64,000 nt of DNA from Oceanomicrobium sp. (GCA_031415055.1 JANOQZ010000043.1:2612-66611), one strand, 5' to 3'; shown: positions 36,991 to 42,526, counted from the first letter of the stretch. Notes: a model not told the origin generated them from the sequence alone. Program-made: numbers and translations.

Positions 36991-38547
36991 TTACGGACCC
37001 TGCGCCGCACCGGGCAGTGAAATGCGGAATTTTGCGCCGCCAGTCGATTGCTCGAGGCCGATTTCTCCGCCATGGGCACGAAGCAACGCCCGAACAATTC
37101 CCAGCCCCATGCCGGTGCCGCCAATTTCGCGGTGGGTGGTGAAAAAGGCGTCAAACAAGCGCTCGCGGTTATTGGCGCTAACACCTTTGCCGTTGTCAGC
37201 AACTATAATTTCGGTGGTCTTGTCTTGGCTGACAGCTATGTCAATTATTGACGCGTCGTTGCGCACCGAATTTTCAATCAAATTGCCCATTACGATTACC
37301 AGATTTTCAAGACTGATCTGCAAGGCCATATCCGGATTATCGACCGAAATCGTTGCCTTTGGAAACCGTTGCCGCAGGTCCGGCAGGCACTTGCCAACCG
37401 AAGATGTGCCCCCCAGTTCCGGCGCTTCCGCTTCGGCCAGTTGACGCAAGCGGCCGACCAGCTGGGTCATGCGTTGGGTGTCAGCAATGATGTTGTCGAT
37501 GAATTGCTGGTGCTGTTTTGGCTTCATGCTGTTCGAATTGTCGCGCATCAATTCCGCTGCGCCCAAAATGGCGGTCAGGGGTGATTTCAGCTCGTGCGTG
37601 ACGTGGGCGGCGAAGGTGCGCATGTAATCGGTGCGTTTGAACAAGGCTTCGGCCATGCCGCGAATGGAACCCGAAAGCTGGGCGATTTCGCGGGTGCCAT
37701 AATGCGGCAAGGGGGCCAAAGCGGTGCGGTCGCCGGTACCCAAAGCTTTGGCCCGATCCATCAGCGCCGTGATTGGACGGGTCACACCACGCCAAAAGAC
37801 ATAGCCGATCAGACCGGTTGCCGAGAGAATGGCGAGGGAGGCCAAAAAGACTTTGTTGCGTTCTTCATAGAGGTTTTTCAGCACGTTGTTGGGGGTGCGC
37901 GAGGCATAAATAACGCCGGCAACGCGACCTTTGTGGATGACGGGCAGGGCGATGAAAACGCGTACTTTGGTGCTGCGGGAAATCGAATACAGCGGCGGCG
38001 GCACTCGGTTGAGGCTGCGCAGACGCAGCACCGGGGCGTACGCGCCTGTCAGAGCGATGGCAACTTCGGGAATATGCGCCAACGACAGGCCGATGTCTTT
38101 GCCGCTGCCGCCGATGATGATGCCGTTCGGGTCGGTGATGCGAAAACCGGCAAGGGTGACTTTTTGGGTTTCCGCCGCCAACACCGACAAGGCCGCTCCG
38201 ATTTTCAAATAAGCGGCATCGGCGGATGAATCAGTTGGCAGTGCGTTGTCTGGTCTTGGCAGAATTGGGCCAGCGGCAAGGTCAAGCGAGGGCACCAACG
38301 GGTTGATCGGTTCCGGGCTTGGGTCGTTGGGCGCAATTGCCCCCAACGAGGCGCTATCGGGCAAAGCTTGCGAAAACGCCGCCGCCAAGACGGTAGATTG
38401 GCCAATCAGGCTTTCCTCGGTTTGGCGGACCAATTGGTTGCCGTAGAGTTGGAAGAACAACAGGCCGAGCAACGGCAGCGTTAGGACAATGAGCAAAACC
38501 GCCGTCACCAGCAAGGCCAGCGATGGACGCCATTTCTGACCCGTCAC
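36991..38547 (-). CDS. sensor histidine kinase (periplasmic loop, HAMP, HisKA, HATPase_c)
   Basis: Two TM helices, H-box FAAHVTHELKSPLT, N box LIENSVRN, G boxes DNGKGV and GTGMGLG. Confidence 0.93.
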   Translation of the reverse strand: MTGQKWRPSLALLVTAVLLIVLTLPLLGLLFFQLYGNQLVRQTEESLIGQSTVLAAAFSQALPDSASLGAIAPNDPSPEPINPLVPSLDLAAGPILPRPDNALPTDSSADAAYLKIGAALSVLAAETQKVTLAGFRITDPNGIIIGGSGKDIGLSLAHIPEVAIALTGAYAPVLRLRSLNRVPPPLYSISRSTKVRVFIALPVIHKGRVAGVIYASRTPNNVLKNLYEERNKVFLASLAILSATGLIGYVFWRGVTRPITALMDRAKALGTGDRTALAPLPHYGTREIAQLSGSIRGMAEALFKRTDYMRTFAAHVTHELKSPLTAILGAAELMRDNSNSMKPKQHQQFIDNIIADTQRMTQLVGRLRQLAEAEAPELGGTSSVGKCLPDLRQRFPKATISVDNPDMALQISLENLVIVMGNLIENSVRNDASIIDIAVSQDKTTEIIVADNGKGVSANNRERLFDAFFTTHREIGGTGMGLGIVRALLRAHGGEIGLEQSTGGAKFRISLPGAAQGP

Positions 38548-39230
38548 GTCACCGCCCTAAGGCGGAAGCCGACGCCGTGCACGGTTTCGATCATCTCGCC
38601 ATTGCCCGCACGGGTCATCTTGGCGCGAAGGTTGCGCACATGGCTGTCTATCGTTCGGTCCGAGACATGGATATTGCCGCCATAGGCCGCGCGCATGATG
38701 CGTTCGCGCGAATGCACGTGGCGGGGGCGGGCGATCAGGGTGGCGATGATTTCAAATTCCAGCGCGGTTAGCTCGAGTTGGGTTTCGCCAAGGCGGGCGA
38801 CATGGGTGTCGCGGTCTATCGCCAGTGTGCCCCAGCGGGTGGGTTCGGGTTCGGCATCGGATTTGTTTGCACTTCGTTTCAGGATGGCTTTGACGCGACC
38901 GGCCAATTCACGGGGCGAGAATGGTTTGGTGACGTAATCGTCGCCGCCAATTTCAAAGCCGATGATGCGGTCGATTTCTTCGTCGCGGGCGGTCAGGAAC
39001 AGGATTGGCACGTCGCTTTCGCGGCGCAGGGTGCGGCACACATCTAGCCCATCCAGTTCGGGCATGCCGATGTCGAGAATAATCAAATCGGCGGGACTTT
39101 CGGCGAAATTGGCCAAAGCCTCGGCCCCGTCCTTGGCGGTGCGGGTTTGGTAACCGGCGGCCTCCATCGCAAAGGCAATCACCTGGCGGATATGCGGGTC
39201 ATCATCGGCGATCAGGATGGTTTGCTGCAT
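38544..39230 (-). CDS. OmpR/PhoB-family response regulator (alternative upstream start ATG 39299 with GGAG)
   Basis: MQQTILIADDDPHIRQV receiver domain (D at ILDIGMPELDG, KPF) plus a winged-helix output (...LTALEFEIIATL...VHGVGFRL). Its stop overlaps the kinase start. Confidence 0.9.
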   Translation of the reverse strand: MQQTILIADDDPHIRQVIAFAMEAAGYQTRTAKDGAEALANFAESPADLIILDIGMPELDGLDVCRTLRRESDVPILFLTARDEEIDRIIGFEIGGDDYVTKPFSPRELAGRVKAILKRSANKSDAEPEPTRWGTLAIDRDTHVARLGETQLELTALEFEIIATLIARPRHVHSRERIMRAAYGGNIHVSDRTIDSHVRNLRAKMTRAGNGEMIETVHGVGFRLRAVT

Positions 39231-39309
39231 GGCTTTCCACGGAAACATTCGTGCAGCATTTGAAAGGAACGGGGCGGATTGCGCAACGGGGTTAATCATG
39301 GGGTGCTCC

Positions 39310-39350
39310 AAATAAAAATCCCGCGCCTGCTGGGGTAAGCGGCGCGGGAT
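39310..39350 (-). terminator. intrinsic-terminator-like hairpin in the leader of the response-regulator operon
   Basis: Minus strand: ATCCCGCGCC-GCTTACCCCAGCA-GGCGCGGGAT (10-bp stem), then TTTTATTTGG, immediately followed by GGAG and ATG 39299. Confidence 0.4.
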
Positions 39351-39438
39351 GGGTCGAGGGGTAGTCGGTACAGTGCATGGTGACTGTATACCCAAGCACT
39401 TTGCAGAGGCTATGGCGCGGTTTGGCAGATTGTCAGGC

Positions 39439-39460
39439 GAATTGTGCAGGAATTGTGCAG
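39439..39460. promoter_or_regulatory. tandem 11-bp direct repeats (candidate OmpR-type regulator site)
   Basis: GAATTGTGCAG GAATTGTGCAG, a perfect repeat with one helical turn periodicity, in the divergent region between the regulator operon and the RT locus. Confidence 0.4.
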
Positions 39461-39544
39461 CAGTGAATCGGCAACGAGAGGTTGGTAAGGTACACCTCTG
39501 CGTGCTTGGCAAATTAACCGCCAACAGGTTAGATTATATCAGCA

Positions 39545-39696
39545 GCCGCGCCTTCGGGAACGCCGAGGTCCTAAAGACCAAAGCACGGGCGGGGTATCCC
39601 CGCCTGCGAATGATGACCTGAACATACGTGGCATAACCTTCGCTTGGCTGCGCCAAGAACGGGTTATGCAGAACGAAGAATGGCCGAAGGCGCGGC
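39545..39696 (+). ncRNA. candidate retron msr-msd non-coding RNA
   Basis: Perfect 13-nt inverted repeat GCCGCGCCTTCGG (39545-39557) / CCGAAGGCGCGGC (39684-39696). It encloses hairpins at 39567-39579, 39586-39606 (GGCGGGG-TAT-CCCCGCC) and 39631-39669 (GCATAACC...CTTGGC-TGC-GCCAAG...GGTTATGC), and ends 17 nt before the RT ATG. Upstream are TTGGCA (39506) and TATATC (39534). Confidence 0.4.
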
Positions 39697-39713
39697 CGCG
39701 GTTTGGAAGGACC

Positions 39714-41135
39714 ATGCGAAAGAAAACATTCGCACGCAATCTGGCTGCCAGTATCGTCAATTCCGTCTGGAATTTCGACGCCGTGGCGGCGGATTTGGCG
39801 GCCATCTTGCCGCGAAAACTGCGCTGGGCGGGTGGCGAATTGGCTGGCGACATATTATTCCGCTGCAAAACGCCCTATGCACCGCCGCTGCCGTTTTTGG
39901 TCATTTACATCGAGAAATCGAATGCGTTCCACAAAGTGTTCAACCAACTTTTGCAGCGTGGGTATTGGCCGCAAGAACAGGAGTCCTCGCCGGAGATGCG
40001 CCCGGTGCCAAGTTTTGCCGAATTGCCCATTCCCAGATTGGTGACCAGCGCGGCGCTGGCGGATTGGCTGCACCTTACGACCGAAGAATTGGATTATTTC
40101 GCCGACCGGCAAGGCCGCGTTGAAGAGGCAGAGGAAGTTCGCATCAACCACTATTTCTATCACATCCTTGCCAAAAAGTCTGGTGGGCAACGGCTGATCG
40201 AGGCACCAAAAGCCAGATTGAAAGCCATACAACGACAAATTTTGCACGATATTCTCGACAGAATTCCACCGCATGGCGACAGTTTTGGCTTTGTGGCGGG
40301 GCGCAATTGTATCGACGCGGCGCGACGGCATTGCGGCGAAAATGTGGTGGTCAGTTTTGATCTGAAATCGTTTTTCAACGCGGTGCCAAGCGCCCGTATT
40401 CATGCGATTTTTCGCTGCCTTGGCTATCCCTATCCGGTAGCACAGGCGATGACGGGATTGGTCAGTGTGCAGACGCCACAGCGGGTGTTGTTGCGGATGG
40501 CGGCGGATCTGCGCCCGTATTTGACCGCGCCGCATTTGCCACAAGGCGCACCGACATCGCCCGCTTTGGCCAGTGCAGCGGCTTTTGGGCTGGATCGGCG
40601 ATTGCGCGGCTTGGCGCGGCACTTGACGGCCAATTACAGTCGCTATGCCGATGATCTGACCTTTTCGGGCGACAGGTCGATTGTCGCGCCTTTGTTGGGG
40701 CTGGTGCCAGAAATTGTGCGCGACGAAGGGTTTGCGTTGAATGCGGCCAAGACTAGGGTGACAGCGAAACACGCCGCGCAGGTTGTGACCGGGATTGTGG
40801 TCAACGAGCATGTGAACGTGTCGCGCAGCGCCTTTGATCACTTGAAAGCGGTGATCCATGCTTGCGCGAAAAAGGGTGATCCGCGCCTTATGCAGCCCGA
40901 ATTCGTGGCGCGGATGCATGGCCAGATTGGCTGGGTTGAAGCGGTCAATCCGGCGCGGGGGATGAAGTTGAGGGCGAGGTGGGAGGGGTGTTGGTCCAAA
41001 GCGAAACGATTAGAAAATAATGTGCCATTCTGCGCCCGAAAAGGCGCGACGGTGCGCAGCACCGGGAAGGGGGTCCGGGGGACCCACCTCAGCGCCGTGG
41101 GCGAGACGCCCGCCAAGCCGGTGGTCTTGATGTGA
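39714..41135 (+). CDS. retron-type reverse transcriptase with long N-terminal extension
   Basis: Motifs in order: ...GGQRLIEAPKARLKAIQRQIL, AARRH, SFDLKSFFNAV, LPQGAPTSPALA, RYADDLTFSG (YADD at 40644-40655), VTGIVVN (40785-40805). Start taken at ATG 39714 (GGAAGG upstream). The track start 39666 lies inside a hairpin of the putative ncRNA. Confidence 0.85.
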   Translation: MRKKTFARNLAASIVNSVWNFDAVAADLAAILPRKLRWAGGELAGDILFRCKTPYAPPLPFLVIYIEKSNAFHKVFNQLLQRGYWPQEQESSPEMRPVPSFAELPIPRLVTSAALADWLHLTTEELDYFADRQGRVEEAEEVRINHYFYHILAKKSGGQRLIEAPKARLKAIQRQILHDILDRIPPHGDSFGFVAGRNCIDAARRHCGENVVVSFDLKSFFNAVPSARIHAIFRCLGYPYPVAQAMTGLVSVQTPQRVLLRMAADLRPYLTAPHLPQGAPTSPALASAAAFGLDRRLRGLARHLTANYSRYADDLTFSGDRSIVAPLLGLVPEIVRDEGFALNAAKTRVTAKHAAQVVTGIVVNEHVNVSRSAFDHLKAVIHACAKKGDPRLMQPEFVARMHGQIGWVEAVNPARGMKLRARWEGCWSKAKRLENNVPFCARKGATVRSTGKGVRGTHLSAVGETPAKPVVLM

Positions 41136-41148
41136 CCTATCGAGAGGG

Positions 41149-41310
41149 CAGTGCCTGACTGGGCAGGTGCGAAGCGCCTGCCGAATGGCAGTCAGGCGCT
41201 GGCCGACCGGCGGGGCCGCTCGTCCGGTATTCAGGGACAGGTCGTGGCCTCGAATTGCCACGGGTCAATTCGAGGGGTGAAAGGTGGGGGATTCGAACGG
41301 AACCGCACCC
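41149..41310 (+). other. hairpin-rich segment immediately 3' of the RT gene
   Basis: Nested 12-bp + 9-bp stem (41149-41201), a perfect 10-bp stem CCTCGAATTG/CAATTCGAGG (41248-41275), and a 7-bp stem around GATTCGAACGGAA (41283-41309). Confidence 0.5.
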
Positions 41311-41391
41311 GATCTCGTAAAGTATTTTGGTTTTTCGCAATACAACGATATACGCCCCTATACGCCGATAAACTTTATATACTTTCCGGAC

Positions 41392-41420
41392 AAAAAGCCC
41401 GGCGTTTCCCCCGGGCTTTT
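41392..41420. terminator. bidirectional rho-independent terminator
   Basis: AAAAAGCCCGG-CGTTTCCC-CCGGGCTTTT. It serves the convergent BMP lipoprotein gene (stop 41441) and the RT locus. Confidence 0.7.
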
Positions 41421-41440
41421 CAATTTCAAATCAGGCCCAA

Positions 41441-42526
41441 TCAGGCGGGAATATCACCCTCGATGCCTTCGACATAGAATCCCATCCCGGCCAATGTGCC
41501 GTCGTCGATGACGGCTCCTGCCGCAAGAAACTCGCTGCCGTCCTGCTTATTCAGAGGGCCAGTGAACGGGTGGTAGCTTTTGTCGGTGATCGCGGCCATC
41601 AGCGCTTCGGCTTCGGCTTTCACGTCGGCGGGCACCACGGCGTTGATCGGGGCGATGACGACGCCGCCTTCACCCATTCCGTCCCAAGTATCGGATTGCG
41701 CCCAAGTGCCGTCCATCACTGCCTTGACCCGGCGTGAATAATACGGACCCCAATTGTCGACAATCGAGGTCAGGCAGGTGTTCGGGCCGAACTGGCCCAT
41801 GTCGGACGCCTGGCCGAACGAGAAGATGCCCTTTTCCTCGGCAATCGTCACTGGCGCGGTGGAATCGGTGTGCTGCATGATCACATCACACCCCTGTTCG
41901 ATCAGGGCATTGGCGGCGTCGGCTTCTTTCTCGGGGTCAAACCAGGTGAAAGCCCAGACGATCTTGAACTGCACCGCCGGGTTGACCTTTTTGGCGTGGA
42001 TATAGGCCGCGTTGATGCCCATCACCACTTCGGGGATCGGGAACGAGGCGATGTAGCCAACGGTGTTGGACTTGGTCATCCGACCCGCCATGGTGCCGAT
42101 AACAGCGCGGCCTTCGTAGAAGCGCGCGTTGTAGGTGGCGACATTGGCATGATCGCGTTTGTAGCCGGTGGCGTGTTCGAATTTCACGTCGGGGAATTTG
42201 GCGGCGACGGCGTTGGTGGCGTCCATATAGCCAAACGAGGTGGTGAAGATGATGTTGGCGCCGTCCAGCGCCATTTGTGTCAGCACCCGTTCGGCATCAG
42301 CCCCTTCGGGCACGCTTTCAACGAACACGGTTTCTACCGCGTCGCCGAGATCGGCCTCGACCTGCTGACGGCCCTGATCGTGCTGGAACGACCAGCCAAG
42401 GTCGCCGACGGGGCCGACATAGATGAAACCGGCCTTGACCATGCCGTGGCTTTCGGCCAAAGCGGGCATTGCAGCAACGGCCAGCGCAGCACCCGCACTG
42501 GTTGCTAAGAAATCGCGTCTATTCAT
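41441..42526 (-). CDS. BMP-family (basic membrane protein) ABC substrate-binding protein, nucleoside type
   Basis: TAT-type signal MNRRDFLATSAGAALAVAAMPALA. BMP/PnrA-like pattern. Confidence 0.9.
   Translation of the reverse strand: MNRRDFLATSAGAALAVAAMPALAESHGMVKAGFIYVGPVGDLGWSFQHDQGRQQVEADLGDAVETVFVESVPEGADAERVLTQMALDGANIIFTTSFGYMDATNAVAAKFPDVKFEHATGYKRDHANVATYNARFYEGRAVIGTMAGRMTKSNTVGYIASFPIPEVVMGINAAYIHAKKVNPAVQFKIVWAFTWFDPEKEADAANALIEQGCDVIMQHTDSTAPVTIAEEKGIFSFGQASDMGQFGPNTCLTSIVDNWGPYYSRRVKAVMDGTWAQSDTWDGMGEGGVVIAPINAVVPADVKAEAEALMAAITDKSYHPFTGPLNKQDGSEFLAAGAVIDDGTLAGMGFYVEGIEGDIPA

Follow-up and report, generated by a model that had tools for sequence, protein, structure and literature searches.

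A probable effector-less retron of the clade 11 type in Oceanomicrobium sp.

Introduction

Retron reverse transcriptases (RTs) were split by Mestre et al. in 2020 (PMC7736814) into 11 clades, and stand-alone (msr-msd)-RT cassettes lacking an associated protein were ascribed there to a branch of clade 2 and to clade 11, the latter essentially Actinobacterial. Two predicted ncRNA families, 11-A and 11-B, are attributed to the same authors in a 2026 SPIRE preprint, which reports clade11-A to be enriched in Pseudomonadota, Actinomycetota, and Acidobacteriota.

The ncRNA sequences of clade-11 retrons are available from Khan et al. 2024 (PMC10849725, supplement 3; clade labels in table S1), e.g., for terminals 1928 (Rhodococcus koreensis), 1913 (Nocardia salmonicida), and 1875 (Myxococcus xanthus DZ2), and the RT-DNA of terminals 1840, 1894, 1913, 1914, 1925, and 1928 has been sequenced. 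The sole strong producer of the clade was terminal 1928, with 2.5x the RT-DNA amount of Eco1; the other clade-11 retrons, assessed by PAGE in E. coli, gave 0, 0, 0, 0, 0.02, 0.02, 0.06, and 0.16x Eco1 (PMC10849725).

The locus described below comes from Oceanomicrobium sp. and lies in a stretch of 64,000 nucleotides (GCA_031415055.1 JANOQZ010000043.1:2612-66611), hereafter the window, within which all coordinates are counted. Its segment 39506-41135 is, with high probability, a self-contained effector-less retron of the "stand-alone" clade-11 family, composed of a promoter, an msr-msd ncRNA at ~39542-39699, and an RT (Table 1). Judging by its relatives, the adjacent RT most likely copies the folded RNA into a small single-stranded DNA. 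The locus adds an Alphaproteobacterial member to a family of effector-less retrons already described; as a kind of retron, it is not new.

Table 1. Features of the retron locus in the window of Oceanomicrobium sp.
Feature	Position	Strand	Remarks
-35-like box TTGGCA	39506..39511	+	Promoter scan and conserved position; putative function
-10-like box TAGATT	39530..39535	+	18-nt spacer; promoter scan
5' arm of the closing helix (a2)	39545..39557	+	Pairing extends to 39542
Candidate branching (priming) G	39558	+	First unpaired base after the 5' arm
Hairpin 1 (msr)	39562..39584	+	Outer GC/GC pairs and inner GGTC-CTAAA-GACC; MFE fold
Hairpin 2 (msr)	39586..39606	+	9 bp, loop TAT, conserved GGGG-NNN-CCCC core
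Predicted msd template	39609..39683	+	Boundaries transferred from clade-11 retrons 1928, 1894, and 1913
Hairpin 3 (msd stem-loop)	39631..39669	+	9 + 6 bp; repeat finder and MFE fold
Single-stranded linker AGAACGAAGAATGG	39670..39683	+	Ends in G39683
3' arm of the closing helix (a1)	39684..39696	+	Pairing extends to 39699
Shine-Dalgarno-like GGAAGGA	39705..39711	+	2 nt before the ATG; read from the sequence, putative function
Retron-type reverse transcriptase, 473 aa	39714..41135	+	Profiles, homolog alignment, AF2 model

Fold of the RNA Upstream of the RT Gene

A repeat finder showed GCCGCGCCTTCGG (39545-39557) to be the exact complement of CCGAAGGCGCGGC (39684-39696), with 126 nt between the two; the pairing of the arms reaches 16 nt at 94% (39542-39557/39684-39699). 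The MFE fold of the + strand of 39540-39700 (-80.6 kcal/mol; z = -6.1 relative to dinucleotide shuffles, with 0/200 shuffles as good) is a closing helix around three hairpins and a 14-nt single-stranded stretch, 39670-39683. The inner stem of hairpin 1 (GGTC/GACC) occupies 39567-39579, an upstream in-frame ATG (39666) sits within hairpin 3, and the ATG of the RT at 39714 follows 17 nt past the 3' arm.

Repeat finder and MFE fold thus bear out the sequence-only reading, in which a perfect 13-bp inverted repeat enclosing three hairpins had been noticed just 5' of the RT. The two short 5' hairpins and the longer 3' hairpin it had listed are present and conserved across the RT family; hairpin 3 is at the position proposed (39631-39669), but its stem comprises 9 + 6 bp instead of 8 + 6.

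The strand is not fixed by thermodynamics alone, since the - strand of 39540-39700 (z = -6.06) folds as well as the + strand. In these G+C-rich loci, gapless helices of 13 bp or more were present at 3.4% of random anchor positions vs 44% of the real sites, the chance level having been counted over wide distance windows and with G-U pairs allowed. Hence, the repeat of a single locus is unusual, as had been claimed on the ground that a 13-mer match is not expected by chance, but it is not decisive in itself; it is judged real because related loci carry it in the same place but with other sequences, which is the decisive evidence.

Conservation and Covariation of the ncRNA

Scanning one genome per species with the window RT (tblastn) yielded 80 loci encoding relatives, from Alpha-, Beta-, and Gammaproteobacteria, Myxococcota, Acidobacteriota, Planctomycetota, and Actinomycetota. 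When exact inverted repeats were sought independently of alignment, most loci having a full-length match proved to possess arms in a common place but of differing sequence, the 5' arm ~150-200 nt and the 3' arm ~12-46 nt before the RT start, with a gap of 118-152 nt. Folding of the upstream regions of the relatives gave the same architecture throughout, and a motif-anchored script recovered it in 59 loci, among which the inner 8 nt of the 5' arm occur as 52 distinct sequences.

Alignment of the divergent relatives with MAFFT/RNAalifold was abandoned: hairpins 2 and 3 were aligned, whereas the 5' arm and hairpin 1 were scrambled. A covariance model (CM) was therefore seeded on five near-colinear Alphaproteobacterial sequences and iterated. 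The first model (R1) found 22 loci; the second (R2), rebuilt from these 22 hits (alignment A5), gave 79 full-length hits and one cut by a contig end, i.e., 80/82 sources, spanning at least six phyla. All RNA hits of R2 immediately precede the RT and share its strand. Elsewhere in the 837 kb scanned with R2 on both strands, only three weak partial matches to hairpin 3, all on the - strand, were encountered, and the scan detected no further copies of the RNA in the window or the flanks.

In the resulting alignment (A7), 91.7% of the cells are paired vs 65.4% after shuffling, percentages inflated by the fitting of CM-derived alignments to the structure. Compensatory changes affect 39/41 pairs, and the covariation score is 0.598 vs 0.157 in shuffled alignments (0/500 shuffles as high), dropping to at most 0.092 when the partners are slid by 1-3 columns. 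The alignment-free results agree in direction with these CM-based statistics.

The covariation extends over most of the structure. In the closing helix, all 11 modelled pairs (the model covers 39547-39557) are compensatory and 95% of the cells are paired, so that the covariation check proposed for orthologous RT loci came out in favor of the arms, whose sequences differ almost everywhere. Hairpin 1 is found in every relative, variable in sequence and length; its inner helix is 91% paired with 4/4 pairs compensatory, its outer 2-bp helix is weak (68% paired). Hairpin 2 is 96.5% paired, with covarying outer pairs and an invariant core. The helices of hairpin 3 (helices 5-7) are 83-99% paired and compensatory in 15/15 pairs, the limits of this hairpin being taken from the CM alignment, as per-sequence MFE folds are unreliable for them. 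G-U pairs are frequent, e.g., UG in 61 sequences at columns 83/101 of hairpin 2, and would be A-C mismatches on the - strand; hence the RNA is read on the + strand, which is that of the RT.

These data also bear on a trivial origin of the fold, in which it would have nothing to do with the RT and be a terminator, an REP-like element, or an inverted repeat arisen by chance. With G-U allowed, ~3% of random anchors do show helices of 13 bp or more, and a terminator scan returned a small - strand hairpin at 39682-39697. Against this stand the position of the RNA upstream of the RT in 80/82 sources from many phyla, the compensatory changes in 39/41 of its pairs, and the lack of other copies in the window or flanks. 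With the distribution of the R2 hits and the covariation taken together, such an origin is refuted for practical purposes, its probability being next to nil.

A permissive scan of 38500-42000 against Rfam 15 gave no match at the element and chance hits elsewhere (E > 2). Genome annotation relying on Rfam will, therefore, leave this RNA unlabelled.

The Reverse Transcriptase

The long ORF 39666-41135 carries Pfam RVT_1. Its best PADLOC matches are all retron RT profiles, namely RT_other (1.8e-129), RT_outgroup (6e-123), and RT_XIII (7.6e-92); the first two, which represent no typed clade, cover the N-terminal domain, whereas RT_XIII does not. The NCBIfam model retron_St85_RT matched at 2.3e-51 vs 6.5e-13 for group II intron RTs and 2e-5 for Drt2, all below the curated cut-offs. 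Retron RTs fill the 12 best places of the PDB sequence search (Ec86, Ec67, Kva2, Ec78, and Ec83 among them) and the top 18 of the Foldseek search with the AF2 model (pLDDT 86.7), the TM-score for Ec86 being 0.78, normalized to the target. By profile, sequence, and predicted fold, the enzyme is of the retron type; RTs of group II introns, DGRs, DRTs, and Abi systems were rejected on their far weaker profile and structure matches.

The window protein contains both SRYADDLTFSGD and RQxVTGxVVN, which vary little or not at all among the 32 homologs aligned; the catalytic YADD and the VTG are conserved in the RT family. Region X of the window protein, GRNCIDAARRHCGE, contains the invariant A203 and H206 (AxxH) and reads N-x4-AxxH, with the N five residues before the A, vs the canonical NAxxH, whose H is the most conserved residue of the motif (PMC7736814).

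The RT core is preceded family-wide by an N-terminal domain of aa ~1-85 (39714-39970), modelled as a five-helix bundle with pLDDT ~90. This domain had no Pfam hit, and Foldseek against the PDB returned nothing significant for it (best E 2.6); in many distant relatives, the N-terminal part is too divergent for tblastn. At the other end, the tail of aa ~442-473 (41030-41135; cf. L081 2900-3088) is not shared by the family, whose members typically have ~430 aa, and is disordered in the model. The Alphaproteobacterial branch comprises more than 100 database proteins at ~50% identity to the window RT.

The homolog N-termini align at MxxxxLAxNLA, that is, at the M of 39714 and not of 39666, and a 473-aa database protein is identical to 39714-41135; the start codon favored in the sequence-only reading is thereby upheld. 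If translation began at ATG 39666 instead, hairpin 3 and the 3' arm would be coding and their structure incidental. This ATG is the first of the ORF, and in the closest ortholog the publicly annotated gene starts from its equivalent, but the 32 homologs display no protein conservation upstream of 39714, the profile match begins at ORF residue 15, the database protein corresponds to the shorter version, and the upstream segment covaries as RNA across phyla. A start at 39666 is, consequently, hardly credible.

The public gene call just mentioned (L081 1593-2936, P0002) starts inside msd hairpin 3 of that locus. Since it adds ~16 residues common to no other member, its start has probably been mis-called.

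Priming Geometry and Predicted msDNA

The unpaired base next to the 5' arm is a G in 77/79 aligned sequences, and so is, in 77/79 as well, the unpaired base immediately preceding the 3' arm; both Gs are present in 76/79, the window among them (G39558 and G39683). The unpaired G after the 5' arm, singled out earlier as a candidate for branching, is therefore a conserved trait. "Two opposing G residues" at the inner end of the a1/a2 stem have been described by Mestre et al. (PMC7736814), and, as read from the sequence, G39558 opposite G39683 represents this retron priming geometry.

For the extent of the msDNA, the RT-DNAs reported by Khan et al. were mapped onto their own ncRNAs. They are templated by what lies past hairpin 2 up to the 3' arm: nt 75-153 of 172 in terminal 1928, and, in terminals 1894 and 1913, a stretch from the 3' arm to a stop 12-13 nt after hairpin 2. 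By analogy with these relatives, reverse transcription is expected at the window locus too, with G39683 as the base predicted to be copied first. This would give an RT-DNA of ~64-75 nt, the reverse complement of ~39609/39620-39683, and the msDNA should take in the linker, hairpin 3, and the single-stranded stretch on the 3' side. The msd of a few tens of nucleotides foreseen initially gives way to this larger estimate, which follows the sequenced clade-11 RT-DNAs.

The following sequence of events can be proposed. One transcript would start near 39542, and its ends would pair (39545-39557 with 39684-39696), bringing G39558 and G39683 face to face where the stem ends on its inner side. Recognition of the msr hairpins by the RT, above all of hairpin 2 with its conserved GGGG/CCCC, would be followed by priming from the 2'-OH of G39558 and by copying leftwards from G39683 through hairpin 3. 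The enzyme would presumably halt a few nucleotides 3' of hairpin 2, leaving an msDNA of ~64-75 nt joined to the msr RNA.

The same fold could also be conceived as a cis-regulatory 5' leader of the RT mRNA, an RT-binding autoregulatory or stabilizing element that masks the ribosome-binding region and is not a DNA template. The 3' arm ends just 8 nt before the Shine-Dalgarno-like site, most clade-11 constructs gave little or no RT-DNA in E. coli, and there is no linked effector that would need msDNA. At the same time, the opposing Gs kept in 76/79 sequences are required by priming and needless for a leader, the catalytic YADD is retained in the RT, and, in several clade-11 relatives of the same architecture, precisely the hairpin 3 to 3' arm region had served as template for the RT-DNA sequenced. 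A purely regulatory leader is, on balance, improbable, and the msr-msd assignment made from the sequence alone is supported by the conserved structure, the retron-type RT, and the clade-11 ncRNAs of the same architecture with sequenced RT-DNA.

Putative Promoter and Limits of the Cassette

TTGGCA with TAGATT was the only sigma-70-like site returned by the promoter scan of the region, and transcription is predicted from these boxes to start at ~39542, the first base of the extended arm. In more distant relatives, TTGGCA- or TTGACA-like boxes occur at the same distance upstream of the ncRNA. Thus, from the TTGGCA/TATATC promoter suggested before, the -35 box was retained on account of its conserved position, and TATATC, which would imply a 23-nt spacer, was replaced by the better TAGATT.

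The closest ortholog (L081) shares 88% protein identity and ~95% ncRNA identity with the window locus. Nucleotide similarity between the two begins abruptly at the -35 box (39506) and ends at ~41030; both flanks and the upstream gene are unrelated. Homology confined to this interval in unrelated contexts indicates that promoter, ncRNA, and RT form a discrete cassette of ~1.5 kb.

Several other sequence elements surround the cassette. A tandem 11-nt direct repeat, GAATTGTGCAG twice, lies at 39438-39465 between the divergent gene of an OmpR-type regulator and the retron promoter. A repeat spacing of one helical turn is typical of binding sites of the OmpR/PhoB family; judging from this arrangement, the GAATTGTGCAG repeats may serve the OmpR-type regulator as its own operator, or may link the retron to it. 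Farther upstream, at 39318-39350, a perfect 10-bp inverted repeat (ATCCCGCGCC/GGCGCGGGAT) followed by a T-run on the - strand resembles a terminator; it is located upstream of the likely start of the response regulator (~39245). Past the RT and before the convergent bmp gene, a G+C-rich hairpin, AAAAGCCCGG...CCGGGCTTTT (41393-41426), bordered by an A-run on one side and a T-run on the other, has the look of a bidirectional terminator; it came to notice because terminator stems in sRNA models matched it weakly.

Genomic Neighborhood

The neighbors of the retron in the window are housekeeping genes, i.e., a divergent OmpR-type response regulator with a histidine kinase and a convergent operon of a Bmp-type ABC transporter. 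ORF clustering around 81 loci revealed no neighbor conserved with, or specific to, the RT; the sole recurring clusters were generic two-component/sigma-54 regulators and ABC-F ATPases. Antisense shadow ORFs emerging from the same clustering were discarded as effector candidates. No effector gene is linked to the RT, either at the locus or across the family, and the linked or RT-fused effector of tripartite defense retrons (types I-XIII) is lacking here, so the standard retron defense model is not applicable. The absence of an associated protein module at the locus agrees with both PMC7736814 and the SPIRE preprint.

Close relatives were sought in mobile elements as well. The phage collection contained none, only distant retron RTs, and neither did the plasmid collection, where the best hits were Burkholderia megaplasmids of ~0.9-1.4 Mb at ~44% identity; on true plasmids, such relatives are considered rare.

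Relationship to Described Retrons

The layout and motifs of the window RNA match at least 20 published clade-11 ncRNA sequences: a closing helix, the unpaired G, a variable hairpin, a CUCYGGGG-NNN-CCCCRGGG hairpin, a long hairpin, and a GAC...G strand. The likeness extends to an RT with an N-terminal extension, to the ncRNA located directly upstream of it, and to the missing linked effector. Moreover, several loci of the tblastn family (Nakamurella, Nocardioides, Kineococcus, and Myxococcaceae) have ncRNAs 81-88% identical to those of the clade-11 retrons of Khan et al.; the Nakamurella ncRNA (L027), found via the window RT, is 88% identical to that of terminal 1840. The RT is accordingly assigned, tentatively, to clade 11 of Mestre et al. 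by an indirect route, i.e., via the likeness of the ncRNA, the profile ranking, and the shared tblastn family. Against this assignment speaks the essentially Actinobacterial make-up given for the clade by Mestre et al., many members in Pseudomonadota being reported in the SPIRE preprint only.

The window retron differs from the clade-11 examples in that its closest relatives are Alphaproteobacterial and its RT is ~40-46% identical to the Actinobacterial members. The Alphaproteobacterial relatives are also recognizable by a 5' arm ending in YUG or CGG and followed by GA, vs the commoner CAA followed by G, and by a short hairpin 1.

In the Myxococcaceae, Pyxidicoccus (L017 4798-4959) and the terminal 1875 of Khan et al. 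harbor a clade-11-type stand-alone retron with the same ncRNA. It is additional to the classical retrons Mx162 and Mx65 of this family.

The next-best RT profile is that of type XIII (clade 10: Mxa1/Mx162, Mxa2/Mx65, Sau1/Sa163, and Nex2/Ne144), which also shares the msr-msd outline. The predicted msDNA size falls in the range of Mx65. Retrons of this type differ in having linked SWIM/winged-helix and HEAT/ARM genes, none of which was found in the window or recurring in the 81 loci. One might, nevertheless, regard the locus as an Mx162/Mx65-like type XIII retron whose partners reside elsewhere or have been lost. Such an assignment would draw on the strong match to RT_XIII (7.6e-92), the N-terminal extension of the window RT, which the Mx162 RT possesses too, and the relatives in Myxococcaceae (L017). 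It is contradicted by the far better scores of RT_other (1.8e-129) and RT_outgroup (6e-123), which cover the N-terminal domain, by the lack of a SWIM or ARM-like neighbor recurring in the 81 loci, and by an ncRNA that matches clade 11 of Khan et al. and not clade 10. A type XIII affiliation is thus very improbable as compared with membership in the stand-alone clade-11 family.

The best solved structural relative is Retron-Eco1 (Ec86, type II-A3; 7V9U, 7V9X, and 8QBK), with E 3e-27 by sequence. It is alike in principle, with its a1/a2 stem, branching G, and msd stem-loop; at the same time, it has a nucleoside deoxyribosyltransferase-like effector, lacks the N-terminal helical domain, shows ~24% identity, and carries an unrelated ncRNA. 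The Ec107-like branch of clade 2 (Retron-Eco5) resembles the window retron as the other lineage that is mostly devoid of an effector, but it belongs to another RT clade (PADLOC RT_Ec107-like, 2.3e-46), has another ncRNA, and occurs mostly in Bacillota (SPIRE survey).

Implications

A bona fide retron ncRNA proved recognizable from raw sequence alone, and the locus has gained exact coordinates for its promoter, priming G, template, and true RT start, the promoter being putative and the template and the priming base being predictions by analogy with clade-11 relatives. The cassette belongs to the least understood group of retrons: its members lack a linked effector, occur widely among bacteria of soil and sea, and are poor producers of RT-DNA in E. 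coli. Pairs of a retron RT and its ncRNA are, besides, candidate parts for genome editing.

A more speculative proposal, to which we assign a low probability, is that promoter, ncRNA, and RT make up a complete, portable, toxin-free system, in which the N-terminal domain would act as the sensor or effector or the msDNA would have a non-defense, housekeeping, or regulatory role. Such a toxin-free unit might be under local control via the OmpR-type 11-nt tandem repeat, a suggestion derived from the position of the repeat. If the proposal of a toxin-free complete system is true, the Alphaproteobacterial branch would offer a tractable entry to the role of effector-less retrons.
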